Shown: positions 23,846 to 41,806, counted from the stretch's first letter. The stretch: 64,000 nucleotides of DNA from Eubacteriales bacterium (GCA_045588575.1 JAZNEJ010000008.1:108060-172059); one strand, 5' to 3'. Numbers and translations are program-made. Notes: generated from the sequence alone by a model not told the origin.

Positions 23846-25987
23846 ATGGCAAAGAAAATAATTTCACTTTTGCTTTGCGTAATACTTTTACTTGGAGTTG
23901 CGAGCCTTTTTTCTGCCTGCAATATTCAAATGGTTGGCAGAACCTACTACATAAGCTCTTCAACAGGTAATGATGCAAACGACGCAAAAACCGAAAATAC
24001 CGCTTGGAAAACCTTTGCAAACCTTAAAAACACCGTTTTAAAAGAGGGCGACAGGGTTTTATTAAAACGAGGCGACGAATGGAACGAGCGTCTTGAAATT
24101 TACGGCGGCGGAAGCGAGGCTCACAGAGCTTTGGTTTCTTCCTACGGCGATAAATCTGCGCCCAAGCCCATAGTCCGTCTTAACAACGGCATAAACGATA
24201 TCTGCATGCTCGTTTCCGACGTGCGTTACGATGCTAACGCTCAAAATCAGGTTAACAACTGTTCAAACCTTACGATTGAGGAGCTCGACCTTAGAAGTGC
24301 ATACCTCGGCATTTATTTCAGAACTCTCGTTTATCACTGCAACAACTTAACCGTTAGAAACGTTGATATTTCTGAAATTTGGTGCGATGAGGTTTTAAGC
24401 AAAATGTCATCTGCCAACGGCGGCGGCCCAACCACCGACGCTTATTATGCAGGTCTTCCCAAAGCAAATCTTCCTTTGGTTACTATAAACCCCGACGCTC
24501 CCTATGATACTCCCCAAAAGGTAAGCTCGGTTCAAGCTACCGGCGGCGGCGCAAACGAATGGCTTATTGCAAGCGCAGTTTTGTTCACGGGCGGCTGGAC
24601 TAACCTTGAATTCGGAAATATCATTATGAATAACGCCGTTAACGGTCTTGAACTTATTGCCTCCTACGACATTTGGGTTCACGACGTAGTTGCGGCAGGC
24701 GGTCTTCCTTTCCGCTCACAGCAGTGCCACGATGTTACTCTTGAAAGAGTTCGTTGCTTGCAAACTCACGAAACGTACACCTTCTGGGGCGGCATTACCG
24801 GAAGCTATTTCGGCGCAACCACCAGAGCTCTTTTAAAAGACAGTGAAATGTCATACGTTTGGAGAAACGGCGAAAACGACGGTTGCGGACTCGACTACGA
24901 AACTCAGTGTTGGAGCGTTGCCACCCAAAACAGCGTTTTCCATCATAACGATTCGGGCTCTCTTTTAATTATGGAACTTCCCGAAACCAACCTGCACGAA
25001 AACGTAAGCTTTGATTATAACCTTTGCTATAACAATATCAGAGACGCCAAGAGCGACACCTATAACTACGAAGTTTTAATGAGAAACCACGGCACAAACA
25101 ACATCTCTATTTCCTATAACGATTTCTTTACCCGCGCATCTAACGGTTGGGGTCAGATTTACTACATCGGCTGCAAGGAAGACAAAGTTGCCGCTTCAAC
25201 GATTAAAGAAGGCAATAATCAAAATTCGGTTAACAATTACCGCACCCGTTTCGCTTTCAACAGCAGCAGCAACGAGGGTTGGTCGTTATATAACGGTCTC
25301 GGCGCATACGGAATTGAAGACGGCGTTTTGAAAATTGTTACAAACGCAAACAAAACGGGCGCAGTCGTTCTTAATAACCGCATCAACGGTCTTTGCTATA
25401 AGAAGATGTTCTTCAAGGTTACAAACGACGTTAAGGGAACCCTTCAGGTTCAATACACTCTTCCCGACGGAACAGTTGAAAAGAGCGAAGCAGTCAAGAT
25501 TAACGGTGCAGGCGACTATATTGTTTCACTTCCCGAAAATCTTGCTTCAATAATCGACGACGTTGCAATAATCTTTACTTCGAATAAAGCAAACCAGCAG
25601 CTTCACATTGATTACGCTCAGTTTATTCTCGATATGAACGCAACCGCTAAAAAGGCGGGCAACAATGCTATTGACATAACCTTCGGCGGCACCTCTACCC
25701 CCTTTATTTCCGATAGCATTAACACCTCTAATATTGCAATTAACGGCTACACCGTTTCCGGCATTAACAAAACCTCCTACAACACCGTTAGAGTAACGGT
25801 TAACGAAGCGGTTTCCGACCTTACCAATTTAAGCGTTACCGCAGATGCCGAGCTTTTCATTCCCTATTTTGCCGATATTATTAACGGTCTTGACTGCGAC
25901 AGAACTGCCGCGCAGGACGCATCGCTTCTCGGCGGAGCCGTTCAGTCTTTTTACTATAACGGTTCTCTTACCCTTATTTGTAAATAA
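23846..25987 (+). CDS. Beta-helix-like surface lipoprotein, paralogue 1 (713 aa)
   Basis: Signal peptide plus lipobox (LFSAC). YYISSSTGNDANDAKTENTAWKTF...EGDRVLLKRGDEWNE resembles the N-terminal cap of pectate-lyase-fold proteins. Conserved GENDGCGLDYETQCW and FHHNDSGSLLIME blocks. The C-terminal ~230 aa look like a beta-sandwich plus an Ig-like module. Family shared with five downstream genes. Confidence 0.7.
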   Translation: MAKKIISLLLCVILLLGVASLFSACNIQMVGRTYYISSSTGNDANDAKTENTAWKTFANLKNTVLKEGDRVLLKRGDEWNERLEIYGGGSEAHRALVSSYGDKSAPKPIVRLNNGINDICMLVSDVRYDANAQNQVNNCSNLTIEELDLRSAYLGIYFRTLVYHCNNLTVRNVDISEIWCDEVLSKMSSANGGGPTTDAYYAGLPKANLPLVTINPDAPYDTPQKVSSVQATGGGANEWLIASAVLFTGGWTNLEFGNIIMNNAVNGLELIASYDIWVHDVVAAGGLPFRSQQCHDVTLERVRCLQTHETYTFWGGITGSYFGATTRALLKDSEMSYVWRNGENDGCGLDYETQCWSVATQNSVFHHNDSGSLLIMELPETNLHENVSFDYNLCYNNIRDAKSDTYNYEVLMRNHGTNNISISYNDFFTRASNGWGQIYYIGCKEDKVAASTIKEGNNQNSVNNYRTRFAFNSSSNEGWSLYNGLGAYGIEDGVLKIVTNANKTGAVVLNNRINGLCYKKMFFKVTNDVKGTLQVQYTLPDGTVEKSEAVKINGAGDYIVSLPENLASIIDDVAIIFTSNKANQQLHIDYAQFILDMNATAKKAGNNAIDITFGGTSTPFISDSINTSNIAINGYTVSGINKTSYNTVRVTVNEAVSDLTNLSVTADAELFIPYFADIINGLDCDRTAAQDASLLGGAVQSFYYNGSLTLICK

Positions 25988-25997
25988 TTTTAATTTA

Positions 25998-26024
25998 AGC
26001 CCCGAGAGTTTCTCGGGGCTTTTT
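25998..26024 (+). terminator. Rho-independent terminator of paralogue 1
   Basis: agccccgaga-gtt-tctcggggct followed by tttt. Confidence 0.7.
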
Positions 26025-26025
26025 A

Positions 26026-26054
26026 TTGCTTTTTGCTTGCTTTTATGTTAAAAT
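26026..26054 (+). promoter_or_regulatory. Sigma-A-type extended -10 promoter of AEC permease gene
   Basis: TTGCTT (abutting the terminator T-tail), 17-nt spacer ending TGt, TAAAAT. Confidence 0.5.
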
Positions 26055-26084
26055 TATTGCAGTTTAACGAAAAAGGAAAAAATT

Positions 26085-27029
26085 ATGATTGTAGACGTCT
26101 CTGTTGTTTCAAATATGGTTGCAATGCTGTTTGTTGTGCTTTTAATCGGCTTCGGCGCAAAAAAGCTTAACTGGGTAACAGACGTAACCTCAAAACAAAT
26201 ATCAAATCTTCTTATCAAGGTGGCGCAGCCTTTTTTAATTATAAGCTCGCTTTTAAAGCTCGATTATTCGGAAGAAAGGCTTTTAAGCGGCGGAATTATT
26301 TTTATAATAGGCGTTACCGTTCACGGCATCCTCTCGCTTTTTGCCTTTTTGGCAACGCGCCCTTTAAAAAAAGACGATAAAAGAAAAATTTGCGAATTTG
26401 CTTTAATTTTCGCAAACTGCGGATTTTTGGGATATCCCTTAATGGAAGCGGCAATGGGCCCCGAAGGTCTTTTCTATGCAAGCATTTACGTTTTAACCTT
26501 TAATATCTACGCTTGGACTTGGGGAATGTTCATTTTGGGCAAGGGCAGAGATGACGTTAAAATTAAGCCGAAAAATATGATTTTGAATTTCGGCACAATT
26601 CCTTGCCTTATAGGAATGGTTTTATACGTCGTTCAGCTCCCCGTCCCCGATTTTATGGTTAGCGCAATGAGCTCTATGGGCTCGGTTTGCACGCCTCTTT
26701 CTGTTTTCCTTTGCGGAATTTTGCTTGCGAAAATCCCCTTTAAAAAAATGTTTACGAGAATATCGGTTTACTACGTTGCCCTCTTAAAGCTCGTGATTTT
26801 CCCCGTTATTATAACTCTTATTGCAAAGCTTTGTGGTCTTTCGGAAACTATGATTTACGTTTCCGCAATAATGACCTCGCTCCCCACCGCAACCAATACC
26901 GCAATGTTTGCCGAAATGTATGATATTGAGCCCGAATATGCCGCTCAAACCGTTGGCACGTCAACTGCGCTTTGCGTTTTAACGGTGCCGTTCGTTGTTT
27001 TCCTCGCAGGGCTTATCGTGCAATTATAA
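26085..27029 (+). CDS. AEC (auxin efflux carrier) family permease
   Basis: 314 aa with ~10 TM segments. The N-terminus LLIGFGAKK...ISNLLIKVAQPFLI is typical of the AEC/membrane-transport family. Confidence 0.75.
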   Translation: MIVDVSVVSNMVAMLFVVLLIGFGAKKLNWVTDVTSKQISNLLIKVAQPFLIISSLLKLDYSEERLLSGGIIFIIGVTVHGILSLFAFLATRPLKKDDKRKICEFALIFANCGFLGYPLMEAAMGPEGLFYASIYVLTFNIYAWTWGMFILGKGRDDVKIKPKNMILNFGTIPCLIGMVLYVVQLPVPDFMVSAMSSMGSVCTPLSVFLCGILLAKIPFKKMFTRISVYYVALLKLVIFPVIITLIAKLCGLSETMIYVSAIMTSLPTATNTAMFAEMYDIEPEYAAQTVGTSTALCVLTVPFVVFLAGLIVQL

Positions 27030-27094
27030 TTTTAAAAAACCCGAATTTTTTGGGTTTTTTCTTTTTTAAACGGGTAAACTTAACAAAATAGGAG

Positions 27095-27123
27095 TTGTTT
27101 TAAAATAATGGCAATGCTATAAT
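27095..27123 (+). promoter_or_regulatory. Sigma-A-type extended -10 promoter of the AraC-GRE gene
   Basis: TTGTTT, 17-nt spacer ending TGc, TATAAT. Confidence 0.5.
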
Positions 27124-27142
27124 TTATGTGAGAGGTGGAAAA

Positions 27143-29776
27143 ATGTTTAACGTTTTAAAATATATACACGAAAACATTACAAGCAAGCTTACCGTAGAAG
27201 ACGTTGCAAATATTTTCGGCTATTCAAAATGGCATTTTTGCAAAAAATTCCACGAATACACAGGCCTTACCTTTGCCGAATATATAAGATATTACCGCAC
27301 ACGTCTTGCCTCAATAGATATTTTGCAGGGCAAAAAGGTAGTTGACGTTGCCACAAATTACGGCTACGATACCGCGGGAGGCTTTAACAAGGCGTTTTTG
27401 AAGGAATACGGCTGTTATCCCACCGAATATAAAAAGCAGGTAAAAGAAAGCTTGCTTTATTACGAATTGAGGAGAAAAAATATGTTTAGACTATCTAACC
27501 GTTGCGCTTATTTAAGAGAAGAAATTGTTAATTCAAAGAAACAAATGCGCTACTATGGCTTTCAGCGCTCCGTTTATGCCGCTCTTGCCACCGAAAAAGC
27601 GGCTAAAGAGGGCGTGGGCAGTCTTTCCGAAATTTACAGCGTTGCCGGCATTGAGGCAACTCTTAACCGCTTTACTCCTTATATTTATCCTCACGAGCTT
27701 ATAACGGGCTTTAACTTTGCCGACGGTATTTACGATTTTGCCCCGTTTGATAAAAACGAGCATTACGAAATGCTTAAAGATAACGGCATTTCCGACGAAG
27801 ATATAGAAGCCTATTTTAAAACAGACTCCTATTTTAAATGCTGGGCATGTTTAAATGAAAATTTCCCTCCCAATCTTCCCGGCCCCGCTCCCCGCACCGA
27901 GCGTGAAGAAGCCGCTCTTAAAGACCTTTCCTCAACCTGCTGGTGTATGACGGGCAACCACACCGTTATTGGCTATCAAAAGGTTTTGGAGCTTGGCTTT
28001 GAGGGAATTTATAAAGAAATTGAAAAATATGAAGAAATTAACGGAAGCTCCGATTTTTATAACTCTGCAAAACGCGTTTGCAAGGCGGCTATGCAAATCG
28101 GTGAAAAATATGCCGCAAAAGCCCGTGAACTTCTCGAAAGCAACGCTCCCGAATACGAGGCCGACGATTTGAATTTTATTATCTCAACCTGCTCACAAGT
28201 TCCCCGTTTTCCCGCAACTAGCTTTAAAGAGGCAATTCAATCGCTTTGGTTTGCCCATATAATCAACACATGGGAAGACGGCATTAACGCAAACTCGCTC
28301 GGAAGGCTCGACCAGATTCTTTACCCTTATTATATTGCTGATATTGAAAAGGGCGTTTTAACCAAGGAAGAAGCCTTCGAGCTTATTTGCTTACTCTGGT
28401 TAAAGCTTTACCGTGATTACGACGTTCAGCAGTCCTGCGTGGGAGGCACAAATCCCGACGGAACGAGCGCCGTTAACGAGCTTTCTTATATGATGCTCGA
28501 TGCAACCGAGGCTTTGGATTTTGTTCGCTGTCTTTCGGTCCGCTATTCCAAAAATACCGAAAAAGATTTCATAAAGCGTGCTCTCGAGGTTGTCGGGCAC
28601 GTTCAAAAGGGCGTTCCCTTCTTCTTTAACGACGACGTTATGATTCCCGCTTTACAAAGCGTCGGCATTTCAAGAGAAGACGCCTTCGATTACACTCAGA
28701 TAGGCTGCGTTGAAACGGTAATTCCGGGAAAATCGAATCCTCACGCCGTAACCGCAAGAGCAAACCTCTTAAAAGCAGTTGAATACACTTTTGCAAACGG
28801 AAAAAGCATGCGTTTTCCCGAGCTTGCTCCCGGTGAAAAAACGGGTGAGCTTTCGAAATTTAAAAGCTATGAGGATTTCTACGCCGCAGTTTTAAAGCAA
28901 ATAGACTGCATTTTGGAAAACTCCTGCTCGCTTGCAAAAAAGGCAAGAGATGCATCCGTTGCATTTAAACCCTATAAATCCATTTTAACCGAGGGTTGTC
29001 TGGAAAAAGGCAGAGATTTTAACGATTACGGCGCAAAATACGATTATTACCAAATGGCGCTTATGGGAATTCCCAATCTTGCCGATTCGCTTGCATCCGT
29101 TAAAAAATTTGTTTACGATACCCGCAAATACACCCTTAACGAAATGAAGGAAATTTTGGAAAATAACTTCCCCGATGAAAGCGTAAGGCAGGAATTTATA
29201 AACAAAGCTCCCAAATTCGGTAACGATATAGACGACGTAGACCTTATTGCTGCGGCGGTAACCGAACACGCCTGCGATAAGTTAATTGAGCTTTCAAAAA
29301 AATATTCAATGAGCTTCCACGCTCAGCCCTTTACTTACGTTTGGTTGGTTGAGCACGGTTCTACTTGCGCGGCAAGTCCCGACGGAAGAAAAATGGCGGA
29401 AAACATTGCATACAGCGTTTCACCAATGCAAGGAAGAGATTTTAGCGGTCTTACCTCTCTTTTAAACTCCATTGCAAAGCTCCCCACAACCAAAACTCCG
29501 GGAACCGCCTCTGCAATAGTTGAGGTAGACCCCAAGCTTTATACCGACAGAAATATAGGTATGCTCACCGAAATTTTTCTTGCAAGCAGTAAAAAAGGTT
29601 TGGCAAACGTTCAGTTTAACACCGTTGACGCCGAAACGCTTATAGATGCGAAAAACCATCCCGAAAAATATAACAATCTTGCCGTCAGAGTTTCGGGATT
29701 CAGCCAAAAATTTAACCTTTTGGGTCCCGATTTACAAGACCATATTATCGGAAGGACGAAACACAAATGCCTTTAA
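27143..29776 (+). CDS. Glycyl radical enzyme (eliminase/dehydratase-type, GCVE active site) with in-frame N-terminal AraC/MarA-type HTH domain
   Basis: The first ~105 aa form a two-HTH AraC DNA-binding domain (LTVEDVANIFGYSKWHFCKKF...ATNYGYDTAGGFNKAFLKEYGCYPTEYKK). The remainder is PFL-like: QIGCVET (Cys 28706-28708, Glu 28712-28714) and glycyl motif AVRVSGFS (Gly 29696-29698). ATG at 27143 has GAGAGGTGG upstream, while the listed GTG at 27128 is unlikely. An internal GAGGAG-N7-ATG lies at 27469-27484. Confidence 0.85.
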   Translation: MFNVLKYIHENITSKLTVEDVANIFGYSKWHFCKKFHEYTGLTFAEYIRYYRTRLASIDILQGKKVVDVATNYGYDTAGGFNKAFLKEYGCYPTEYKKQVKESLLYYELRRKNMFRLSNRCAYLREEIVNSKKQMRYYGFQRSVYAALATEKAAKEGVGSLSEIYSVAGIEATLNRFTPYIYPHELITGFNFADGIYDFAPFDKNEHYEMLKDNGISDEDIEAYFKTDSYFKCWACLNENFPPNLPGPAPRTEREEAALKDLSSTCWCMTGNHTVIGYQKVLELGFEGIYKEIEKYEEINGSSDFYNSAKRVCKAAMQIGEKYAAKARELLESNAPEYEADDLNFIISTCSQVPRFPATSFKEAIQSLWFAHIINTWEDGINANSLGRLDQILYPYYIADIEKGVLTKEEAFELICLLWLKLYRDYDVQQSCVGGTNPDGTSAVNELSYMMLDATEALDFVRCLSVRYSKNTEKDFIKRALEVVGHVQKGVPFFFNDDVMIPALQSVGISREDAFDYTQIGCVETVIPGKSNPHAVTARANLLKAVEYTFANGKSMRFPELAPGEKTGELSKFKSYEDFYAAVLKQIDCILENSCSLAKKARDASVAFKPYKSILTEGCLEKGRDFNDYGAKYDYYQMALMGIPNLADSLASVKKFVYDTRKYTLNEMKEILENNFPDESVRQEFINKAPKFGNDIDDVDLIAAAVTEHACDKLIELSKKYSMSFHAQPFTYVWLVEHGSTCAASPDGRKMAENIAYSVSPMQGRDFSGLTSLLNSIAKLPTTKTPGTASAIVEVDPKLYTDRNIGMLTEIFLASSKKGLANVQFNTVDAETLIDAKNHPEKYNNLAVRVSGFSQKFNLLGPDLQDHIIGRTKHKCL

Positions 29777-30681
29777 AAGCAATAATTTCAAATATTGCCC
29801 TCTGCTCGCTTCACGACGGCGACGGCGTCAGAGCCGTTGTTTATTTTAAAGGTTGCGGTCTTAACTGCAAGTGGTGCCACAATCCCGAAACAAATTCAAA
29901 AAAACCCGAAATTATTTACACTCCCGTAAAATGCATTTGCTGCGGCAGATGCATTGAGGTTTGTCCCTCCTGCCATATTATTAAAGACGGAAAAATGGAG
30001 TTTTTAAGAAAAAACTGCACCGGTTGCGGAAAATGCTTTGAGGCTTGCCCCACAGGCGCTCTTTCGCTTTGCGGCGAATATAAAACCGTTTCCGACGTTT
30101 TTAATTTCGTTATGAAGGATGCCCACTACTACGAGGCAACGGGCGGCGGCGTAACGCTTTCGGGCGGTGAATGTCTGCTTTGGTCGGATTTTTGTGCGGA
30201 GCTTTTAAAAAAATGCAAAGAAAACGGAATTAACACCGCAGTTGAAACGGCTCTTTTCGTCGATTGGCTTAAAATTCAAAAGGTTATTCCGTATGTCGAC
30301 CTTTTTTACGCCGATTTAAAAATTCCGAATTCAAAAAAGCACGAAAAATATACGGGAAGCGGAAACGAGTTAATTATTGAGAATATGCAAAAATTAACAA
30401 AAGAAGCAAAAAGAGTTATTATTCGCATTCCGCTTATTCCCACGGTAAACGACGGCAACGAAGATATTAAAGGCTTTGCCGAAATTATCAAAACGCTTGA
30501 AAAAATTGAGGGCATTGAGGTTTTAAAATATAATAATCTTGCGGAATCGAAATATAACGGAGTCGGAAAAAGCTTTTATTCCTTTGCAAAGGAAAGTCAG
30601 TCGGACGAGGAAATAAAAGAATTTTGCAGAAAGTTAAAAGCGGAGCTTGCTGATAAGATAAACGTTTTTTTTGAAAAATAA
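29767..30681 (+). CDS. Glycyl-radical enzyme activating protein (radical SAM, two auxiliary 4Fe-4S motifs)
   Basis: CGLNCKWCHNPE (CX3CX2C) followed by CICCGRCIEVCP and CTGCGKCFEACP. The 10-nt overlap with the GRE stop suggests translational coupling. Confidence 0.9.
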   Translation: MPLKAIISNIALCSLHDGDGVRAVVYFKGCGLNCKWCHNPETNSKKPEIIYTPVKCICCGRCIEVCPSCHIIKDGKMEFLRKNCTGCGKCFEACPTGALSLCGEYKTVSDVFNFVMKDAHYYEATGGGVTLSGGECLLWSDFCAELLKKCKENGINTAVETALFVDWLKIQKVIPYVDLFYADLKIPNSKKHEKYTGSGNELIIENMQKLTKEAKRVIIRIPLIPTVNDGNEDIKGFAEIIKTLEKIEGIEVLKYNNLAESKYNGVGKSFYSFAKESQSDEEIKEFCRKLKAELADKINVFFEK

Positions 30682-32884: not shown

Positions 32885-32913
32885 TTGCTTTTTTAAATCG
32901 GTTATGCTATTAT
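32885..32913 (+). promoter_or_regulatory. Sigma-A-type extended -10 promoter of paralogue 3
   Basis: TTGCTT, 17-nt spacer ending TGc, TATTAT. Confidence 0.55.
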
Positions 32914-32982
32914 TAAAACAATGGCAAAAGCCACTAAAATAAAACGAAAGAAAGCAACCCGAAAGTTTTGGAGGAATGCAAA

Positions 32983-35076
32983 ATGGCAACGAAAAAAATA
33001 GGCAACACCTATTACATCAGCTGGTCTGAAGGTAACGACTCAAACAGCGGCAAAAGCAAAAACGCTCCCTGGAAAAGCTTTAAAAAAATTAATGCCAAGG
33101 TTTTAAAGCCGGGCGATAAGGTTTTATTAAAAAGAGGCGATATTTGGCACGAGCGTTTGGAAATTTACGGCGGCGGCTCGGAAGAAAACAACGTTTTGGT
33201 TTCGGCATACGGCGATAAAAACGCACCCAAGCCTCGAATTCAGCTTTCAAACGGAATGGACGACATTTGCGTTTTGGTTTCCGACGTAAGATATAATAAA
33301 AGCGGTAAAAATCAAATTCACGAATGCTCAAACCTCATAATCGAAGAACTCGACCTTCGCAACACCTATCTCGGCATTTATTTCAGACTTAAATTCTTAA
33401 AGAGCAAAAACTTAATCGTCAGAAACATCTACTTCCACGATATTTTCTGCGATGAAACTCTTAAGTCTATGGCAACCAAATACGGCGGCTGCGTAGAAGA
33501 GATGAACAGACAAGGCGCAAGAATTAAAGGAAATCTTGCCATTGTTAATCTCGAAAAGAGAAGAGCCGTTGCCCCCACGGGAGCAGCAGCCGAATATCTT
33601 CTTGCCTGCGCGGTTATCTTTAACGGCGGCTACTCAAACGTTGAGCTTTACAATTTAACTCTTTATAACGTTTACGTTGGCATTGAGCTTATTGCGGTTA
33701 AAGACGTTTTCCTTCACGATATGGTTTCTTCCGGCAACTGCTCGTTCCGTTTGCAGCTTTGTGAAAACGTTAGAGTTGAAAGATGCCGTATGCTTTCAAG
33801 CGGCGTAGACTACACCTTCTTCGGCGGCACCTGCGGTTCCTATTTTGCAGATTCCGACCATAACCTCATTAAAAACAACGAGCTTTCCTACACATATAAC
33901 TTAGGCGAAAACGACGGCTGCGCGCTCGACTTCGAATACCGTTGCGGCCACACCACCATTGAAAACAACGTATTCCATCACAACGATTCGGGCTCAATGC
34001 TCTTTATGGGACTTCAGGAGGGCCAGCGCCATAACAACGTTGTTGTTGAAAACAACCTTTCTTACGCCAACATAAGAAACCCCAAAAATCAGCAGTATAA
34101 TTTTGAATTTTTATGCGACGTTTTGGGCTTTGATAACACCGAGGAAACCGTGCGTCTTGCAGGAAACACAATGTTTACAAGAGAAATTTCCAACGGCCAC
34201 CGCACCTTCTTCTTCGGAAGCCTCGAAGAACAATATAAAATCTTGCGTCTTTGCGACGGCGGCTCTTCCACCCCCAACAGCTATCCTCGCCTTCACGCAA
34301 AAAACAACAAGAATAACCTCAAAAACTACCACAACCGTCTTGCATTCTTAAAAGATTACGATAACTTAAACCTTCTCCCCGAAAAAACCATGGTAAACGT
34401 TGAAGACGGCGTTTTAACCCTTTACCCCAGAAACGGCGTTGCCAAAACGGTTTTAACCACCCCCATCAACGGCTTCTGCTACACCAAGGCAAGACTTGTT
34501 GTTAATAACGATGCAAAGGGCGACCTTGCAATTAGCTACACTCTTTCCGACGGCACCCTCGTAATGCTCGACGATATTAAAATAAGAGGTGCGGGCGAAT
34601 ATATTGTAACTCTTGCCGATGAAGCAATTTGCTCGATAATCCGCAACTTCACCATCGTCTTCAAGCCCTCGAGAGGCAACACTCCCCTTGAAATTTCAAT
34701 GTTCGAATTCTTGCCCGACTTAAACGGAAGCGCAAACAAGGCGGGAGATAACGAAATAGATGTAACCTTCGGCGGCGTTTCATTCCCGATGATTGCTTTT
34801 TATCCTCAGGCAGAGGATATTGAAATTGAAGGCTACACCGTTAAGGGAATTGAAAAGCTCAGCCACAACACTTTAAGAGTAACGGTAGCCGAAAAGGTTG
34901 GCTCGCTTAAAGACGTTAAAGTAACGGCAAAGGCAGCATTATTCCTTGAATATTTCAAGGACCTTCTTAACGGTCTTGACTGCGAACGCTCAATTTCCGA
35001 CGATTCAGCTCTTGCAGGCGTTGCCACCGATAAAACGAGCTACTACAACGGCGCTCTTATCTTCAATTGTAAATAA
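32983..35076 (+). CDS. Beta-helix-like protein, paralogue 3, without signal peptide (predicted cytoplasmic, 697 aa)
   Basis: ATG at 32983 has GGAGGA 7 nt upstream, the same SD geometry as its siblings. The product starts MATKKIGNTYYIS, which is MAKKI + GRTYYIS of the siblings with the hydrophobic core and lipobox missing. It is the most diverged member. Confidence 0.7.
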   Translation: MATKKIGNTYYISWSEGNDSNSGKSKNAPWKSFKKINAKVLKPGDKVLLKRGDIWHERLEIYGGGSEENNVLVSAYGDKNAPKPRIQLSNGMDDICVLVSDVRYNKSGKNQIHECSNLIIEELDLRNTYLGIYFRLKFLKSKNLIVRNIYFHDIFCDETLKSMATKYGGCVEEMNRQGARIKGNLAIVNLEKRRAVAPTGAAAEYLLACAVIFNGGYSNVELYNLTLYNVYVGIELIAVKDVFLHDMVSSGNCSFRLQLCENVRVERCRMLSSGVDYTFFGGTCGSYFADSDHNLIKNNELSYTYNLGENDGCALDFEYRCGHTTIENNVFHHNDSGSMLFMGLQEGQRHNNVVVENNLSYANIRNPKNQQYNFEFLCDVLGFDNTEETVRLAGNTMFTREISNGHRTFFFGSLEEQYKILRLCDGGSSTPNSYPRLHAKNNKNNLKNYHNRLAFLKDYDNLNLLPEKTMVNVEDGVLTLYPRNGVAKTVLTTPINGFCYTKARLVVNNDAKGDLAISYTLSDGTLVMLDDIKIRGAGEYIVTLADEAICSIIRNFTIVFKPSRGNTPLEISMFEFLPDLNGSANKAGDNEIDVTFGGVSFPMIAFYPQAEDIEIEGYTVKGIEKLSHNTLRVTVAEKVGSLKDVKVTAKAALFLEYFKDLLNGLDCERSISDDSALAGVATDKTSYYNGALIFNCK

Positions 35077-35090
35077 ATTTAAACATTTTA

Positions 35091-35119
35091 AAAAACCCGA
35101 TTTTTTTCGGGTTTTTTTA
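35091..35119 (+). terminator. Rho-independent terminator of paralogue 3
   Basis: aaaacccga-ttttttt-cgggtttt followed by a T-run. Confidence 0.55.
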
Positions 35120-35148
35120 TTGCTTTTTTTAAATCTATATGTTATATT
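35120..35148 (+). promoter_or_regulatory. Sigma-A-type extended -10 promoter of paralogue 4
   Basis: TTGCTT, 17-nt spacer ending TGt, TATATT. Confidence 0.55.
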
Positions 35149-35189
35149 TATATAGGATTAAATCCGCAAAGAATACGGAGGAAAGAAAA

Positions 35190-37283
35190 ATGGCAAAGAA
35201 GATAATTTCAATTTTACTTTGCGTTGTTATGCTTGCAGGCGTTATGAGCTTTTTATCGGCTTGTAATTTCCAAACCGTTGGAAGAACCTATTACATAAGC
35301 TCTTCAACCGGTAACGACGATAACGATGCAAAAACAGAAGGCTCTGCTTGGAAAACCTTTAAAAACCTCAAAACAACCGTTTTAAAGGAAGGCGACAGAG
35401 TTTTACTCAAAAGAGGCGACGAATGGAACGAGCGCCTTGAAATCTACGGCGGCGGCTCGAAAGAGCACATGGCTTTGGTTTCGGCATACGGCGATAAAAA
35501 CGCGCCCAGACCTCGCATTAAACTTAACAACACAATCGACGATATATGCGTTTTGGTTTCCGACGTTCACTACGAAAAAGACCAGAAAAATATGGTTAAC
35601 GAAATTTCCAACCTTATCATCGAGGAGCTCGATATAAGAAACGCTTATCTCGGCATTTATTTCAGAACCTTGTTCTTCACACACAAAAACCTTATTGTAA
35701 GAAATCTTGAAATTTCTGAAATTTGGGCAGAGGGCGTTTCGAGTCCCACCGGCGGAAGCGCAGTAACCGACGCTGCAATTGCCGCTCAACCCAAAGGAAA
35801 TCTTCCCAAGGTTAACAAAAACACCGGTCTTGTAACCGAAACGGGCGGCGGCGCTAACGAATGGCTCCTTGCAAGCGCAGTTTTATTCACGGGCGGATGG
35901 GAAAACGTTGAATTCGGAAATCTCCGCTTTAACAATGCCGTTAACGGCCTCGAGCTTATAGTTATGAAGGACGTTTGGGTTCACGATATAATTTCCGCAG
36001 GCGGTCTTGTTTTCCGTTCACAGCACTCCGAAAACGTTAAGGTTGAAAGATGCCGCTTGCTTTCCACTCACGAAGAATTCACCTTCTGGGGCGGTATGAC
36101 CGGAAGCTATCTCGGCACTGCTACCAATAACGTTGTAACCAACAACGAGTTCTCTTACTGTTACAGAAACGGCCAGAACGACGGCTGCGGTCTTGACTAT
36201 GAAACTCAGTGCTGGGATACCAAGGTTGAATACAACGTATTCCACCACAACGATTCGGGCTCGCTTTTAATTATGGAGCTTCCCGATTACGGCGTTCACG
36301 ATAACATAACTTTCGACCACAACCTTTGTTACAACAACATAAGAGACCCCAAAACCACAACTTACAACTACGAAGTTTTAATGAGAAACCACGGCACCAA
36401 CAATATTTCAATTTCCTATAACGATTTCTTCACTCCCGCAAGAACAAAATGGGGCATTGTTGATTACATTGGCTGCAATGAAGACAGAGTTGCCGCTTCA
36501 ACCATTCAGGTTGGCAACAACGAAAAAACCGTTGACGATTACCGCACCCGTTTTAGCTTTAACAAAGACGGCTTCGGCGAGGGATTTGCCGCTCACACCG
36601 GCTCGTTCACCGTTGCAAACGGCGTTGGTAAAATAACCGCCAAGGATAAGCTCGGCGCTATTGTTTTAAACAATCCCATCAACGGCTTCTGCTACAAGAA
36701 GATGCTCTTTAACGTTGCAAACGATGCAAAAGGCACTCTTCAGGTTCAGTATTCTCTTTCCGACGGCACCGTTAAAAAGAGTGAAAAGGTAAATCTTAAC
36801 GGCGCAGGCGGCTACATTGTAAATCTCGGTGAGGATATCAATTCCGCACTTTACAACATCGTTGTAATTTACACTCCCTCAAGCTCAAACGGCTCGGTTG
36901 AATTCGATTTCATTCAGTTTATGATTGATATGGATGCAACCGCAAGAAAGTCGGGTAACAAAACCATCGACGTAACCTTTGTTGGCGATAGCGTTCCCTT
37001 TGTTTCCGATAAAGCAACCGCAAAGCACATCTCCATTAACGGCTACACCGTAACCAAAATGGAAAAGGTAAACTACAACACCGTTAGAGTAACGGTTAAC
37101 GAAAACGTCGGTAACGTTAAAAATCTTAAAGTTACCGCACAGGCAGGTCTCTTTATAGACTATTTTGCCGATATCATTAAAGGTCTTGATTGCGACAGAA
37201 CCGCCGCAGACGATGCAGCTCTTCTCGGTTGCCAAACTCAAGCCTACTATTATAGCGGCGCACTTGCTTTCACCTGCAAATAA
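35190..37283 (+). CDS. Beta-helix-like surface lipoprotein, paralogue 4 (697 aa)
   Basis: MAKKIISILLCVVMLAGVMSFLSAC lipoprotein signal, with GGAGGA upstream of the ATG at 35190. The listed ORF start at 35139 is an upstream extension. Confidence 0.7.
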   Translation: MAKKIISILLCVVMLAGVMSFLSACNFQTVGRTYYISSSTGNDDNDAKTEGSAWKTFKNLKTTVLKEGDRVLLKRGDEWNERLEIYGGGSKEHMALVSAYGDKNAPRPRIKLNNTIDDICVLVSDVHYEKDQKNMVNEISNLIIEELDIRNAYLGIYFRTLFFTHKNLIVRNLEISEIWAEGVSSPTGGSAVTDAAIAAQPKGNLPKVNKNTGLVTETGGGANEWLLASAVLFTGGWENVEFGNLRFNNAVNGLELIVMKDVWVHDIISAGGLVFRSQHSENVKVERCRLLSTHEEFTFWGGMTGSYLGTATNNVVTNNEFSYCYRNGQNDGCGLDYETQCWDTKVEYNVFHHNDSGSLLIMELPDYGVHDNITFDHNLCYNNIRDPKTTTYNYEVLMRNHGTNNISISYNDFFTPARTKWGIVDYIGCNEDRVAASTIQVGNNEKTVDDYRTRFSFNKDGFGEGFAAHTGSFTVANGVGKITAKDKLGAIVLNNPINGFCYKKMLFNVANDAKGTLQVQYSLSDGTVKKSEKVNLNGAGGYIVNLGEDINSALYNIVVIYTPSSSNGSVEFDFIQFMIDMDATARKSGNKTIDVTFVGDSVPFVSDKATAKHISINGYTVTKMEKVNYNTVRVTVNENVGNVKNLKVTAQAGLFIDYFADIIKGLDCDRTAADDAALLGCQTQAYYYSGALAFTCK

Positions 37284-37292
37284 TAAAACCCA

Positions 37293-37320
37293 AAGCCCCG
37301 AGTTTTTCGGGGCTTTTTTT
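37293..37320 (+). terminator. Rho-independent terminator of paralogue 4
   Basis: aagccccga-gttt-ttcggggctt followed by tttttt. Confidence 0.7.
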
Positions 37321-37321
37321 G

Positions 37322-37392: not shown

Positions 37393-39522
37393 ATGCTGAA
37401 AAAGATAATTTCAATTTTGCTTTGCGTTATAATTTTATTCGGCTTAACGAGCTTTTTTTCTTCTTGCAGCGTTAAACTCGGAAGAAGCTACTACATAAGC
37501 TCTTCAACCGGCAACGACGCAAACGATGCCAAAACCGAAAAAACCGCTTGGAAAAGCTTTGAAAATCTTAAAGACGTGGTTCTTCAGCCCGGCGATAAGG
37601 TTTTATTAAAGCGTGGCGACGAATGGAACGAGCGCTTGGAAATCTACGGCGGCGGAAGCACGAAATGCAGAGCTTTGGTTTCCTCTTACGGCGATATATC
37701 TAAGCCAAAGCCCATAATCCGTCTTAATAACACCATAAACGATATTTGCGTTTTGGTTGCCGACGTTCGATATGATGAAAATCAGCAGAATATGTTTAAC
37801 GAGATTTCCAATCTCACCATTGAAAATTTAGACGTTCGCAACGCATATCTCGGAATTTATATCAGAACTCTCAAATACTACTGCAAAAATTTAACCATTC
37901 AAAATTGCGATATTTCTAACATCTGGGCAGAAGAAATTTTAGAAACCAACTCAAGCGGCTATAAATGCGTGCTTAATTACTCCATTCCCGGAAGCCTTGG
38001 CGAAAGATACGCCACAATGGCAAAAGGAAATCTTCCTTATTGGAACAGGCAAACAAACGAAGTATTGCCCACCGGCGGCGGTGCAATCGGTGATGAAGCT
38101 TGGTTCCTTGCCAGCGCAGTATTATTCACGGGCGGCTGGACTAACGTTGAAATAGGCAATATAGTTATGAACAACAATATGAACGGTCTTGAGCTCATTG
38201 CCTCGAAGGATATTTGGGTGCACGACGTTATTGCCGCAGGCAGTCTTACCTTCCGCTCACAGCATTGCACCAACGTTACCATTGAAAGAACCCGTTGCTT
38301 GCAAACTCATCAGGAAATTACCTTCTGGGGCGGCATTACGGGAAGCTATTTCGGCACCACCACAAACGGTATTTTCAAAAACAGCGAGATTTCTTACGTT
38401 TGGAGAAACGGTGAAAACGACGGCTGCGCCATAGACTACGAAACTCAGTGTTGGGATTGCAAAATTGAAAACAACGCCTTCCATCATAACGATTCGGGCT
38501 CGCTTTTAATTATGGAGCTTCCCGCAACTGCAACTCATTCTAACGTTACCTTCAACTCCAATCTTTGTTACGATAACATAAGAGACCCCAAAAGCGGCAT
38601 TTATAACTGGGAAGTTTTTATGAAAAACAACGGCAGAGATAATATATCAATCTCCTATAACGATTTCTTCACGCCGTTCAGAACCAAATGGGGCATTCCC
38701 GGATATATAGGTTGTAATGAAGACAGATTTGCCGCAACCACAATTAAAGACGGTAACGTTGAAAAGGATACCGACGATTACCGCACTCGTTTTTCCTTTA
38801 ACAAAGACGGAAATACGGAAGGCTGGAAAATTCTTAACGGAAGCTTCACCGTGGCAAACGGCATTGGTAAGTTAACGGCGAAAAACAAGCTTGCCGCAAT
38901 GGTTTTAGATATTCCCGTTAACGGCTTTTGCTATAAAGAGCTTCTTTTTAAGGTTACCAATAACGCAAAGGGAATGCTTCAGCTTCAATATGCAAACTCC
39001 GACGGAACTATTATAAGAACCGAAAAGGTAGCGGTAAACGGCGCAGGGGAATATTCCGTTTCTCTCGGAAAAGACATCTATTCCGTTTTGAAAAACGTTA
39101 CGGTTTTATTCACTCCCGTTGAGCCTAACGGAAGCTTGGAGCTTGACTACGCTCAGTTTATTCTCGATATGAGTGCCTCGGCAAAAAAATCGGGAACAAG
39201 AACCATCGACGTAACCTTTACGGGTGAATCGTTCCCCGTTATAAGCGATTATTTGCAAGCAAGCTATTTAACGGTTAACGGCTATACGGTTAACAAAATT
39301 GAAAAAATAAATTACAACACTGTCAGAGTAACCGTTAACAAAAACGTGGGTAATTTAAGCAACCTGAAAATTACCGCAAAAGCAGAGCTTTTCATTCCTT
39401 ACTTTGCCGATATCATTAAAGGGCTTGACTGCGACAGAACCGCCGCAGACGATGCAGCTCTTCTCGGTTGCTCCGCTCAAAGCTACTACTATAACGGAAG
39501 CATTTCCTTAACCTGTAAATAA
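37393..39522 (+). CDS. Beta-helix-like surface lipoprotein, paralogue 5 (709 aa)
   Basis: MLKKIISILLCVIILFGLTSFFSSC lipoprotein signal and the family blocks (GENDGCAIDYETQCW, FHHNDSGSLLIME). Confidence 0.7.
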   Translation: MLKKIISILLCVIILFGLTSFFSSCSVKLGRSYYISSSTGNDANDAKTEKTAWKSFENLKDVVLQPGDKVLLKRGDEWNERLEIYGGGSTKCRALVSSYGDISKPKPIIRLNNTINDICVLVADVRYDENQQNMFNEISNLTIENLDVRNAYLGIYIRTLKYYCKNLTIQNCDISNIWAEEILETNSSGYKCVLNYSIPGSLGERYATMAKGNLPYWNRQTNEVLPTGGGAIGDEAWFLASAVLFTGGWTNVEIGNIVMNNNMNGLELIASKDIWVHDVIAAGSLTFRSQHCTNVTIERTRCLQTHQEITFWGGITGSYFGTTTNGIFKNSEISYVWRNGENDGCAIDYETQCWDCKIENNAFHHNDSGSLLIMELPATATHSNVTFNSNLCYDNIRDPKSGIYNWEVFMKNNGRDNISISYNDFFTPFRTKWGIPGYIGCNEDRFAATTIKDGNVEKDTDDYRTRFSFNKDGNTEGWKILNGSFTVANGIGKLTAKNKLAAMVLDIPVNGFCYKELLFKVTNNAKGMLQLQYANSDGTIIRTEKVAVNGAGEYSVSLGKDIYSVLKNVTVLFTPVEPNGSLELDYAQFILDMSASAKKSGTRTIDVTFTGESFPVISDYLQASYLTVNGYTVNKIEKINYNTVRVTVNKNVGNLSNLKITAKAELFIPYFADIIKGLDCDRTAADDAALLGCSAQSYYYNGSISLTCK

Positions 39523-39538
39523 AATAAAAAAAGTAAAA

Positions 39539-39565
39539 AAGCCCCGAATTTTCGGGGCTTTTTTA
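39539..39565 (+). terminator. Rho-independent terminator of paralogue 5
   Basis: aagccccgaa-tt-ttcggggctt followed by tttt. Confidence 0.7.
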
Positions 39566-39594
39566 TTGCAATAAAACAAAATATATGCTAATAT
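39566..39594 (+). promoter_or_regulatory. Sigma-A-type extended -10 promoter of paralogue 6
   Basis: TTGCAA, 17-nt spacer ending TGc, TAATAT. Confidence 0.55.
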
Positions 39595-39625
39595 ATATTT
39601 ACCCTTGAAATGCGAGGTAAAAATT

Positions 39626-41806
39626 ATGAAAAAAATTATATCTCTTTTAATTTGTCTTGTCCTTTTATTTGGAATTACGGGCGTTTTATCTTCTTGCGTG
39701 ATTGAAGAAGTTTCACAGCCCGAGCTTGAGGAAGAGCCTTTTTCTCCTGTTGGCAGAGTCTATTACATAAGCTCTTCAACGGGCGACGACTCAAACGACG
39801 CTTTAACAAAGGAAACCGCATGGAAAAGCTTTAAAAACCTTAAAAACGTTGTTTTAACGGCAGGCGACAGAGTTTTACTCAAAAGAGGCGACGAATGGAA
39901 CGAGCGCTTGGAAATTTACGGCGGCGGAAGTGAAGAACACAGAGCAATTGTTTCCTCTTACGGATATAAAAACGAACCCAAGCCGAGAATTAAGCTAAAT
40001 AACACCATAGACGATATCTGCGTGCTTGTTTCCGACGTAAGATACGATGAAAACCTCGCAAACGTAGCCAACCGTTGCGATAACCTTATAATTGAAAATT
40101 TGGATATACGCAATGCTTACCTCGGCATTTATTTCAGAACTCTTCTTTATTATAACGTTAACTTAACCGTTAGAAATCTTGAAATTTCTGAAATCTGGGC
40201 AGAGGGCGTTTCGCAGGATATGAGCTTAAGCGGCGCAAAAGACGCTTATTGGGCAGGTCTTGTTAAAGCAAACCTTCCCACCTACAAAATAGATAAAGAA
40301 ATAGAATCCGATGATATCGGCGATAAGATAATTTCCGTTACCGAAACGGGCGGCGGCGCTAACGAATGGCTTCTTCCCAGCGCAGTATTGTTTACGGGCG
40401 GCTGGACCAACGTTGAATTCGGCAATATTATTATGAATAATGCAATGAACGGCCTTGAGCTTATTGCATCAAAGGATATTTGGGTACACGACGTTATTGC
40501 AACAGGCGGAACTCTTTTCCGTTCACAGCACTGCACCAACCTTAAAGTTGAAAGAAGCCGCTTACTTTCCACCAACGAAAGATTCTCCTTCTGGGGCGGT
40601 ATGACAGGCTCGTATCTCGGTACCACCAAGGATAGCATTATAATGAATAACGAGCTTTCCTATTGTTTAAGAAACGGCGCGGGCGACGGCTGCGGTATGG
40701 ATTACGAAACTCAGTGCTGGAACACCAAGGTTGACTATAACGTTTTCCACCATAACGATTCGGGCTCGCTCTTAATTATGGAGCTTCACAGAAACGATAA
40801 AAGAGAGGACCTTGGTTTTCATCAAGACATTACCTTTAACTATAACCTTTCCTACAATAATCTCAGAGATATTAAAACCCAACAGTATAGCTACGAGGTT
40901 TTAATGAGAAACCACGGCACCAACAATATTTCAATTTCCTATAACGATTTCTATACTCCCTATAGAACAAAGTGGGGATTAACAAACTACATCGGCTGTA
41001 ACGAAGATAGAGTTGCCGCTTCAACGATTAAAGAAGGCAACAATCAAAATTCGGTTAACAATTATCGCACACGCTTCTCCTTTAACAAAGACGGAAACGG
41101 CGAAGGCTTTAAGGCTCACACCGGCACCTTTACCGTTGCAAACGGCGTTGGTAAAATTGAATCGAAGGGAAATGTCGGCGCAATTTATTTATCAATTCCC
41201 CAAAACGGCTTCTGCTACAAAAACGTTTTGGTAAGCGTTTCAAATAATGCAAAGGGCTCGCTTTATTTCCAATACTCCCTCTCCGACGGAACCGTTATGC
41301 AAAGCGAGCAAGTTAAAATTAACGGCAAGGGTAACTACATTGTTTCTCTTGGCGACGACATAAAGTCGTCTCTTTACGATATTGCTCTTGTTTTCCTTCC
41401 CTCGCAGTCGGGCGGAGTTATTGAAATGGATTACATTCAGTTCCTTCTCGATATTACCGCATCGGCAAAGAAAATAGATGATAACACCATTGAAATTGCC
41501 TTTGGCGGCGATTCCGTTCCCTTCGTTTCCGATAACCTTAACAAAAACTATATTAACGTTGGCGGCTACACCGTTACCGCTATTGAAAAATATAACTACA
41601 ACACAATAAGAGTAACGGTTAACGAAAAGGTTGGTAATCTTAAAAACCTTAAAATTGCAACAAGCGCAAACCTCTTCGTGCGCTACTTTGCCGATATCAT
41701 TAAAGGGCTTGACTGCGACAGAACCGCCGCAGACGATGCAGCTCTTCTCGGTTGCCAAGCTCAAAGCTACTACTATAACGGAAGCATTTCCTTGGCTTGT
41801 AAATAA
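39626..41806 (+). CDS. Beta-helix-like surface lipoprotein, paralogue 6 (726 aa) with acidic post-lipobox linker
   Basis: MKKIISLLICLVLLFGITGVLSSC, then VIEEVSQPELEEEPFSPVG before the conserved RVYYISSSTGDD. ATG at 39626. Confidence 0.7.
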   Translation: MKKIISLLICLVLLFGITGVLSSCVIEEVSQPELEEEPFSPVGRVYYISSSTGDDSNDALTKETAWKSFKNLKNVVLTAGDRVLLKRGDEWNERLEIYGGGSEEHRAIVSSYGYKNEPKPRIKLNNTIDDICVLVSDVRYDENLANVANRCDNLIIENLDIRNAYLGIYFRTLLYYNVNLTVRNLEISEIWAEGVSQDMSLSGAKDAYWAGLVKANLPTYKIDKEIESDDIGDKIISVTETGGGANEWLLPSAVLFTGGWTNVEFGNIIMNNAMNGLELIASKDIWVHDVIATGGTLFRSQHCTNLKVERSRLLSTNERFSFWGGMTGSYLGTTKDSIIMNNELSYCLRNGAGDGCGMDYETQCWNTKVDYNVFHHNDSGSLLIMELHRNDKREDLGFHQDITFNYNLSYNNLRDIKTQQYSYEVLMRNHGTNNISISYNDFYTPYRTKWGLTNYIGCNEDRVAASTIKEGNNQNSVNNYRTRFSFNKDGNGEGFKAHTGTFTVANGVGKIESKGNVGAIYLSIPQNGFCYKNVLVSVSNNAKGSLYFQYSLSDGTVMQSEQVKINGKGNYIVSLGDDIKSSLYDIALVFLPSQSGGVIEMDYIQFLLDITASAKKIDDNTIEIAFGGDSVPFVSDNLNKNYINVGGYTVTAIEKYNYNTIRVTVNEKVGNLKNLKIATSANLFVRYFADIIKGLDCDRTAADDAALLGCQAQSYYYNGSISLACK

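Follow-up and report, generated by a model that had tools for sequence, protein, structure and literature searches.

We analyzed a stretch of 64,000 nucleotides (the window) from a Eubacteriales bacterium (GCA_045588575.1, JAZNEJ010000008.1:108060-172059), in which nine genes follow one another between positions 23846 and 41806, counted from the first nucleotide of the window. There are nine open reading frames in this interval, all on the + strand: six paralogs (par1 to par6), an AEC-family permease, a glycyl radical enzyme (GRE) with a fused helix-turn-helix (HTH) domain, and a GRE activase. A first-pass annotation, made from the sequence alone, had listed nine co-oriented genes in the order given below, and the open reading frames together with Pfam and NCBIfam matches confirmed it. 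We conclude that this 18-kb stretch is probably a composite of two independent elements, a tandem array of GH136-like genes and an inserted permease/HTH-GRE/activase segment. The features of the locus are as follows.

22758..23522, - strand: spo0A (response regulator receiver plus Spo0A_C; PF08769, E 1.5e-43), the conserved divergent neighbor of the putative ancestral paralog
23846..25987, + strand: par1, lipoprotein with a GH136-like beta-helix domain, a beta-sandwich resembling a carbohydrate-binding module (CBM), and an Ig-like module
24878-24880, in par1: putative acid/base D345; 24899-24901, in par1: putative nucleophile E352
25997..26021, + strand: intrinsic terminator after par1 (11-bp stem, 7 GC pairs, T-run; -23.8 kcal/mol, z -4.8)
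26085..27029, + strand: AEC-family (Mem_trans) permease (PF03547, E 2e-35)
27034..27060, + strand: terminator-like hairpin after the permease (12-bp stem, 3 GC pairs only, T-run)
27080..27104, + strand: putative operator of the fused HTH, TTAACAAAATAGGAGTTGTTTTAAA (position weight matrix score 19.1)
27128..29776, + strand: AraC/MarA-type HTH domain (aa 8-107) fused to a GRE (HTH_18, HTH_AraC, PFL-like and Gly_radical)
29767..30681, + strand: GRE-activating radical S-adenosylmethionine (SAM) enzyme, the activase (TIGR02494, 320.7 bits versus a cutoff of 174)
30751..32850, + strand: par2, lipoprotein; terminator at 32855-32884
32968..35076, + strand: par3, no signal peptide, an older subtype that groups with the homolog P0008 (PF13229, E 2e-5); terminator at 35090-35117
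35139..37283, + strand: par4, lipoprotein; terminator at 37292-37316
37393..39522, + strand: par5, lipoprotein; bidirectional terminator at 39534-39565
39605..41806, + strand: par6, lipoprotein; truncated unit terminator after the gene, next hairpin at 42053-42089
25993-26056, 32852-32915, 35087-35150 and 39533-39596: copies of the intergenic spacer (repeat family D12)

Three genes most likely start within these open reading frames: the GRE at ATG 27143 (in agreement with the 877-aa database entry P0025), par4 at 35190 (MAKKIIS alignment) and par6 at 39626 (MKKIIS alignment). A 244-aa open reading frame antisense to par6 (41240-41974, - strand) had no Pfam match and is most likely spurious. 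The junction between the activase and par2 recurs at 97% DNA identity in a metagenome contig from ENA (L166); because that contig reproduces the junction independently, the arrangement is not an assembly artifact. The flanks of the array within the window are made up of housekeeping genes.

Repeat analysis identified six copies that recur every 2.16-2.28 kb, except for 6.9 kb between copies 1 and 2. The duplicated unit of ~2.2 kb contains the intergenic spacer, that is, a terminator and a promoter, with the order hairpin terminator, TTATTGC(T/A)TTTT, and an extended -10-like TATG(C/T)TA(T/A)(T/A)AT. Terminator-like hairpins are present directly after par1, the permease, par2, par3, par4 and par5, and par6 is served by the later, shared hairpin at 42053-42089. 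Folding energy was checked for two of the hairpins, the one after par1 (values above) and the one after the permease; the energy of the latter (-11 kcal/mol, z -1.5) is no improvement on that of shuffled sequence. Because the spacer with its terminator and promoter was duplicated, and because hairpins follow the units, we view the array as a string of monocistronic units. The permease is its own transcription unit, with terminator-like hairpins on both sides. Just past the first spacer, the array is interrupted by the 4.6-kb segment with the permease, GRE and activase (26085-30681). An Rfam scan of positions 20000-45000 detected no riboswitch or leader, and the only two matches, both below threshold, were on terminator-like hairpins.

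At the far end of the array (41817-41905), the unit terminator after par6 is shortened to its left arm, AAAGCCCCGAA, and is followed by two 24-nt direct repeats, AGCTATGATCGCCTTCGGCGAGTT and AGTTATGATTGCCTTCGGCAAGTT. The truncated terminator and the repeats are possibly a scar at the array end.

Identity to par1 is 45-64% for the paralogs par2 to par6. A distance tree placed par1, par2, par4, par5 and par6 in a lineage-specific clade and paired par3 with P0008 (64% identity; neither has a signal peptide). Looking up P0008 and the GRE of the window (P0025) by exact sequence gave no recorded match. The sister clade consisted of the nearest orthologs from outside (43-51% identity), which come from four metagenome-assembled genomes (MAGs) of uncultured Clostridia/Eubacteriales, one of them from sheep colon. 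A single ortholog lies divergently beside spo0A, as par1 does here, in L001, L008, L009 and L010, and the Spo0A proteins are 72-78% identical. This adjacency was seen in a metagenome locus (L001) and in the three MAGs with upstream sequence; the locus in the fourth MAG (L011) spans 4.8 kb and shows no spo0A. There was no GRE near the spo0A-adjacent orthologs, and a GH4 gene is downstream of the one in L001.

Elsewhere, the two sets of genes were not found together. None of the 78 loci with relatives of the paralogs had a GRE, activase or AEC homolog within 10 kb, and none of the 80 loci with GRE relatives (the best 80 of 452, which are also the basis of the GRE neighborhood counts below) had a paralog or AEC homolog. 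One MAG (JAZQKU, SGB_816) contained both families, on different contigs. The first-pass annotation had joined the paralogs, as a depolymerase battery, to the permease and the GRE in a single pathway. This proposal does not fit the absence of co-localization in other genomes, nor the organization of the locus into mostly separate transcription units with terminators and a putative operator at the GRE promoter only. Of the three outcomes that the annotation had named as refuting it, this lack of co-localization did occur, and the other two (paralogs that are not beta-helices, or a GRE inside a characterized cluster) did not. Because the families do not co-localize, the terminators are separate and the operator is private to the GRE, we regard chance adjacency, by insertion into a tandem array, as the best explanation.

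Signal peptides with a lipobox-like ...(S/A)(A/S)C at their end are present in five of the six paralogs. The first-pass annotation had noted a lipoprotein signal that was absent in one member, and par3 is indeed the exception. The N-terminal block that it quoted is present in the paralogs, as are the blocks GENDGCG(L/I)DYE and FHHNDSGSLLIM. In an alignment of 18 members, with identity down to 22%, the invariant residues were D345, G346, D350, E352, N368, L374 and M376 (par1 numbering). The in-paralogs are 58-72% identical in amino acid sequence. Analysis of dN/dS was rejected for these genes, as synonymous sites are saturated at this level of identity. The highest identity among the in-paralogs, 80-87% pairwise, is in the N-terminal cap and the C-terminal tail. 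The copies are least alike in par1 aa 181-233 (24386-24544) and the equivalent segments of par2, par4, par5 and par6, which have indels and are 18-34% identical pairwise, compared to 60-87% outside this segment. The hypervariable segment lies inside the beta-helix and is a candidate specificity loop. A Cys-containing tail, GLDCDRTAADDAALLGC..YYYNGS..L.CK, occupies the last ~40 codons of every paralog (for example, 25865-25984) at 85% pairwise identity; it was poorly modeled by AlphaFold when the C-terminal region was predicted alone. The full-length family is small and rare: there were 24 matches in a word-indexed search of 5.8 billion proteins, and of 1.84 billion representatives, 244 matched at E<=1e-30, ~30 of them near full length.

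An AlphaFold2 model of par1 (predicted local distance difference test, pLDDT, 89.5; predicted template modeling score, pTM, 0.89) consisted of a beta-helix followed by all-beta modules. In a Foldseek search with this model, ranks 1-5 were all GH136 lacto-N-biosidases (E 1.4e-11 to 1.5e-9). Next came phage tailspike and capsule depolymerases and PL6 lyases (together E 4e-9 to 1e-4), as well as GH110. The confidence of the model and the five top matches agree with the earlier description of the paralogs as beta-helix proteins of a glycan-active type. They do not agree with its statement that no classical carbohydrate-active enzyme was recognizable, since the paralogs themselves appear to be distant GH136-type relatives. 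When the last 252 residues were modeled on their own, the top fold match was a MAM-Ig module; other matches were CBM29, CBM86, CBM16, CBM11 and CBM32 (target TM ~0.5-0.6 over ~130 residues). The two AlphaFold models and the fold search thus support the C-terminal beta-sandwich-like and Ig-like region noted previously.

Sequence profiles gave the same relationship. When compared to the PDB, the profile of the paralog family matched only GH136 entries (7v6m, E 1.9e-26, plus 7v6i, 6kqs, 5gqc and 24mr), with significant matches over the N-terminal 90-135 aa (E 1.9e-26 to 3.8e-17). The NCBIfam model for LnbX, a lacto-N-biosidase, matched aa 28-118 at 43-55 bits versus a cutoff of 2500. A profile-profile alignment of the paralog family with a set of bona fide and near GH136 sequences extended over 542 columns (probability 99.95%, E 3.9e-38), and in this alignment D345 pairs with the GH136 acid/base Asp and E352 pairs with the nucleophile Asp. 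The catalytic pair of ErLnb136, D568 (acid/base) and D575 (nucleophile), is seven residues apart (PMC7335108). Positions D382 and D389 of the LnbX chain fall within DGQAWDAD, and a bona fide GH136 gene in L085 (E 1.4e-161 to LnbX) has the pair in DGQ(P/A)WDAD. Motifs from beta-helix proteins form a graded series, DGQPWDAD, DGQGFDVD, DGQAFDFE, DGVGFDFE and DGCGFDFE, that leads to DGCGLDYE in the window. The GH136 motif DGxxxDx[D/E] is kept in the paralogs, with D345 conserved and Glu (E352), not Asp, at the nucleophile position. Of the two invariant blocks that had been suggested to be catalytic, GENDGCGLDYE is the one that aligns with the GH136 catalytic pair, and FHHNDSGSLLIM falls on the conserved GH136 rung that comes next.

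There is no helical partner domain of the GH136I/LnbY type in the paralogs, as the beta-helix starts right after the lipobox. No GH136I/LnbY-type partner was found by Pfam and NCBIfam among the three non-paralog genes of the array, and the neighborhood of the bona fide GH136 gene in L085 contained no obvious candidate for a LnbY-type partner. Because the L085 locus also seems to be without one, such a partner may not be universal in GH136.

Judged from sequence and predicted structure, the paralogs would be distant GH136-type right-handed beta-helix glycosidases. Known members of GH136 are all lacto-N-biosidases from infant-gut and mucin-associated bacteria. Like LnbX of Bifidobacterium longum, ErLnb136 of Eubacterium ramulus, BsaX and TnX, the paralogs have a right-handed beta-helix as (predicted) catalytic domain. 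The N-terminal cap and first rungs, YY(I/V)SSxxGxDxNxGxSxxxPxK(T/S)...PGDxVLLxRG, are much alike, and both sets of proteins have a rung of the pattern DGxxxDx(D/E), in which two carboxylates are spaced by seven residues, and after it a conserved ...N...(I/L)M rung. The GH136 structures (5gqc, 6kqs, 7v6i and 7v6m) are their best match by sequence, profile and fold. The paralogs differ from GH136 in sharing only ~13-14% identity over the structure alignment, in having Glu in place of Asp at the nucleophile position, in having no GH136I/LnbY-type helical domain or gene, in their C-terminal modules (a CBM-like sandwich, an Ig-like module and the Cys-containing tail), in their lipoprotein anchor, and in the small size of the full-length family. 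Tailspikes, capsule depolymerases and PL6 lyases share the beta-helix fold with the paralogs, but they score below GH136, have no sequence motif in common with the paralogs and are unlike them in context, as there is no phage at this locus. A phage or depolymerase origin was rejected because the GH136 matches outrank the tailspikes and the surroundings of the array are housekeeping genes.

The permease in the inserted segment matched PF03547 at 122.5 bits (gathering cutoff 25.7). It scored 99.5 bits against TIGR00946, below the cutoff of 246, so no equivalog was reached.

The GRE matched PF02901 (PFL-like, E 2.6e-124) and PF01228 (Gly_radical, E 1.1e-21). Its N-terminus matched PF12833 (63.9 bits, cutoff 33.6) and PF00165 (47.6 bits, cutoff 26.6) over aa 13-104, and the best NCBIfam and PDB matches of this domain were RamA, SoxS and Rob. 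The glycyl motif RVSGF holds G857, and the Cys loop GCVE holds C527 and E529; these three residues and H278 are invariant in 16 aligned HTH-GRE members. A G-C-V-E (CXE) Cys loop is typical of 1,2-eliminases and newer GRE isomerases (PMC13450708). A His is also found at the position of GDH H164, and substrate-binding positions of GDH/PDH are changed (H281 and S282 to N387 and A388; D447 to V541). The GRE scored below every curated equivalog, 3- to 5-fold under the cutoff (best, HypD, 332 versus 1100 bits), and its best PDB match was 315 bits versus 2030 bits for itself. Since no equivalog was reached and the GDH/PDH substrate positions are replaced, we assign it to an uncharacterized GRE subfamily. 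The first-pass annotation had singled out the placement of the GRE among characterized enzymes as informative, and by these scores and residues it is outside every characterized isofunctional cluster, among them GDH, PDH, HypD, CutC, HpsG/HpfG, IslA, YbiW/PflD and the decarboxylases.

The activase has CX3CX2C and two ferredoxin-like clusters, and its gene overlaps the GRE stop codon by 10 nt. The pair resembles the glycyl radical 1,2-eliminases and isomerases (B12-independent glycerol dehydratase, GDH, 1r8w; propanediol dehydratase, PDH, 5i2a; HypD, 6vxc; CutC; YbiW/PflD, 8id7/8id0) in the PFL-like barrel with RVSGF, in the G-C-V-E loop with its general-base Glu and the His just described, and in the adjacent radical SAM activase with extra ferredoxin clusters. 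Apart from the missing equivalog match and the replaced substrate residues, the GRE differs from characterized GREs by its N-terminal AraC-type DNA-binding domain and, unlike microcompartment GRE systems, there are no microcompartment genes at the locus. Literature searches returned no mention of a GRE fused to an AraC/HTH DNA-binding domain, which is an absence from the searchable literature and not proof of novelty; the terms helix-turn-helix, AraC, DNA-binding and fused are all absent from a 2026 review of GREs (PMC13450708).

There were 711 database matches to the HTH-GRE, and PF12833 was present in all 120 among the matches listed, at 60-71% identity. In GTDB species-representative genomes there were 452 loci with relatives, nearly all in uncultured gut and rumen Clostridia. 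By tblastn, 68 of the 80 loci have the activase directly downstream of the GRE; clustering gave 63. There was no other conserved neighbor, the next commonest (AraC regulators, SpoIVB, GH28, GH106, GH38, GH78, Spo0A, PGM) being present in at most nine of the 80. The HTH-GRE and its activase are a widespread two-gene module. In three loci (L098, L099 and L101), the HTH-GRE (at 10001) is preceded by a second GRE-core gene ~3-4 kb upstream, making tandem GREs. A spo0A gene is within a few kb of the module in L096, L103, L114 and L145 (Spo0A 38-46% identical to that of the window), and seven loci have SpoIVB immediately upstream of the GRE. Because spo0A and SpoIVB recur near it, the module may have landed repeatedly in the surroundings of spo0A.

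Approximately 16-17 of the 80 loci have a GRE without the HTH, and these orthologs are 50-63% identical to the GRE in the window. Eight of them are in sugar operons (L122, L125, L129, L148, L153, L157, L160 and L164, with the GRE at ~10001-12300 in most). The glycoside hydrolases in the operons of HTH-less orthologs are GH78 and GH106 rhamnosidases, GH28, GH38, GH92 and GH3, and the other enzymes include RpiB, a class II (FucA/RhaD-type) aldolase, an FBP aldolase with a D-lyxose isomerase, and a heparinase II/III-like lyase. Because the HTH-less orthologs lie in sugar operons, the substrate of the GRE is, by analogy, probably a small sugar-derived metabolite. This hint is drawn only from the co-directional operons of the HTH-less orthologs, and not from the sporadic glycoside hydrolases near HTH-fused GREs.

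The regions upstream of the HTH-fused genes are otherwise unalignable, and have in common an element of ~20 bp, cGCAAttTTGGAGTaGAaaT, that is conserved across species. The GGAGT of this element begins 27 nt upstream of the -10 TATAAT (27118-27123 in the window; extended -10 TGCTATAAT, 27115-27123), so the element overlaps the -35 region. With a weight matrix made from 39 instances (23 bits), the element was detected at >=17 bits at 47 of 54 fused genes and at >=13 bits at 51 of 54, including a dozen outside the training set, and at none of 17 HTH-less orthologs. Of 57 matches at >=17 bits in 1.14 Mb of fetched loci, 53 were at an HTH-GRE promoter, and three more precede an unannotated lipoprotein gene directly ahead of the HTH-GRE. 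This lipoprotein (L113:8447-9998, L118:1439-3210 and L154:843-2613; 492-565 aa) has no Pfam match and is solute-binding-protein-like. In the window there was a single match, at 27080-27104 (19.1 bits), which is the sole site in the 64 kb above the range of shuffled sequence; the runner-up, at 10.9 bits, is within that range. A scan of the whole window with the weight matrix did not find the element at any paralog or permease promoter. Since the element tracks the presence of the HTH and is located at the gene's own promoter, it suggests that the HTH-GRE autoregulates through a putative operator overlapping the -35, to which the fused domain is predicted to bind.

The fused domain resembles the MarA/SoxS/Rob branch of the AraC/XylS family in having a double HTH that is N-terminal and followed by a large C-terminal domain, as in Rob. 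As with MarA and SoxS, the putative site is made up of two conserved halves (GCAA...GGAGT) spaced by roughly one turn of the helix, and its placement over the -35 is that of class II MarA/SoxS sites in a comparison with the marbox. Unlike in these regulators, a whole radical enzyme forms the C-terminal domain, and the sequence of the site differs from the marbox. In combining an enzyme with a (predicted) DNA-binding function, the HTH-GRE is like trigger enzymes, that is, enzymes that double as transcription factors.

These observations can be combined in a model for the locus. The array would have grown from a single ancestral gene beside spo0A, each unit having its own promoter, gene and terminator, and the 4.6-kb segment would have inserted after unit 1. 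Five of the paralogs would be exported and lipid-anchored on the cell surface, and by analogy to GH136 would act there as glycosidases, probably by a retaining mechanism in which E352 attacks the anomeric carbon and D345 is the acid/base. The CBM-like module would hold the glycan, and the variable loop (aa 181-233) would set specificity. Because the copies differ most in this loop, they are most likely a set of related surface glycosidases with differing glycan specificities. The par3 protein may act in the cytoplasm on imported oligosaccharides. The GRE would be of the 1,2-eliminase/isomerase type, with a CXE Cys loop, a MarA/Rob-like AraC domain and its own activase. From the known chemistry of GREs, the activase would install the radical on G857, C527 would then abstract a hydrogen from a hydroxylated substrate, and E529 would deprotonate the adjacent OH, so that a C-O (or C-N) bond is cleaved. 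The site overlapping the -35 is the most likely target of the fused HTH, which would thereby tune transcription of its own gene. The par2 gene may receive read-through from the GRE-activase unit.

Several observations weigh against two independent elements and a GH136-type array. The segment was inserted inside the array and not beside it, with all nine genes co-oriented. One copy of the spacer repeat D12 is located before the AEC gene, placing the permease behind a promoter of the paralog type, and no terminator was found between the activase and par2 by a hairpin scan and folding. Because of the inserted position, the common orientation and the missing terminator before par2, some transcriptional coupling from the GRE through the activase to par2 is possible. 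Many HTH-less GRE orthologs lie in long co-directional operons with glycoside hydrolases, and a loose metabolic tie between the GRE and glycan degradation is plausible. The genome collection that was used did not include the window's own genome, so the comparisons covered relatives other than its closest ones. When the central catalytic region alone was searched against the PDB with a plain hidden Markov model, it did not retrieve GH136 (GH110 8pvs, E 0.037, plus noise). For this reason GH136 membership is distant, and the assignment of D345 and E352 as catalytic residues was made by profile-profile alignment and motif position, together with the motif series. Many of the same observations would also fit a lineage-specific pathway of the nine genes in which surface beta-helix enzymes free a small glycan product, the AEC permease imports it and the GRE dehydrates or cleaves it: the genes are interleaved and co-oriented, the gap between the activase and par2 and the promoter of the AEC gene are as just described, the HTH-less orthologs are in operons with GH78, GH106, GH28, GH38, GH92, GH3, aldolases and sugar isomerases, and the arrangement is stable in a second sample (L166). 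Nevertheless, we consider such a pathway unlikely, given the lack of linkage elsewhere (0 of 78 and 0 of 80 loci), the separate contigs in the one MAG with both families, the closest orthologs being single genes beside spo0A with no GRE, the terminators behind the paralogs and the permease, and the restriction of the operator to the GRE promoter. In addition, AEC carriers are not known to import sugars. A more elaborate proposal seems to us about as doubtful as the simple pathway. It holds that the HTH-GRE is a new kind of trigger enzyme within a nascent lineage pathway: the AraC domain would bind GCAA-N4-GGAGT at its own promoter under control of substrate occupancy or of the (oxygen-sensitive) radical state, and the insertion, with read-through into par2 and the permease behind a paralog-type promoter, would channel a sugar derivative released at the surface into radical chemistry.

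Two other explanations concern one half of the locus each, and we give both less credence. The paralogs could be non-catalytic, variable surface proteins in which the beta-helix and the CBM-like module serve for binding only, as adhesins or as lipoproteins with antigenic diversification. Five lipoprotein copies with a hypervariable segment (18-34% pairwise identity, with indels), phage tailspikes among the structural neighbors, and the absence of any Pfam or NCBIfam model that assigns an activity are all consistent with this. It is improbable, because D345, E352, D350 and N368 are invariant in 18 members down to 22% identity, even in the copy without a signal peptide, and because a copy of that kind (par3, P0008 type) is hard to square with an adhesin. 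Similarly, the HTH-GRE could be mainly a transcription factor whose degenerate GRE domain senses a ligand or oxygen and is not a working enzyme, as its MarA-like N-terminus with a large C-terminal domain is reminiscent of one-component regulators of the Rob type and there is no conserved pathway partner or transporter nearby. We find this slightly less probable still: no change is seen at G857 (in RVSGF), Cys527, Glu529 or H278 across 16 aligned members, the activase is kept directly downstream in 68 of 80 loci (the rest mostly cut by contig ends), and the HTH-less orthologs (50-63% identity) are in catabolic operons. The composite of a GH136-like tandem array and an inserted permease/HTH-GRE/activase segment thus remains our preferred explanation. 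It is based on what was observed of the gene content, the conserved motifs, the layout of the array and the insertion, the linkage (not conserved elsewhere) and the way the motif co-varies with the HTH, and on the modeled fold; the enzymatic activity and mechanism of the paralogs, DNA binding at the motif, and the substrate class of the GRE are predictions from these data.

Besides the bona fide spo0A (22758-23522), the window encodes a second, divergent protein with a Spo0A_C domain (56875-57564, - strand; E 2e-8). Three tandem paralogs of M42 glutamyl-aminopeptidase (58362-61310, - strand) are another local gene expansion.

Each part of the locus is of a known kind (GH136-type glycosidase, GRE and activase, AraC-type domain, AEC carrier), and two of the parts are clear variants: the six-fold, partner-less lipoprotein GH136-like clade with Glu at the nucleophile position, and the fusion of a GRE to a DNA-binding domain with a putative operator. 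For genome mining, the locus is a warning that tight, co-oriented interleaving of genes may stem from insertion into a tandem array and not from a common function. If the paralogs are GH136-like, they would be a very divergent clade, with a Glu nucleophile and no partner, that has undergone a six-fold surface expansion in a gut Clostridia species. Such a clade would broaden the chemistry and substrate range of the family and would provide a natural specificity series. The HTH-GRE is present in hundreds of uncultured gut Clostridia species and seems to be missing from the current GRE literature. As a radical enzyme with its own transcription factor and a clearly predicted operator, it makes the regulatory mechanism directly testable, and the sugar operons of its HTH-less orthologs narrow the hunt for a new GRE substrate.

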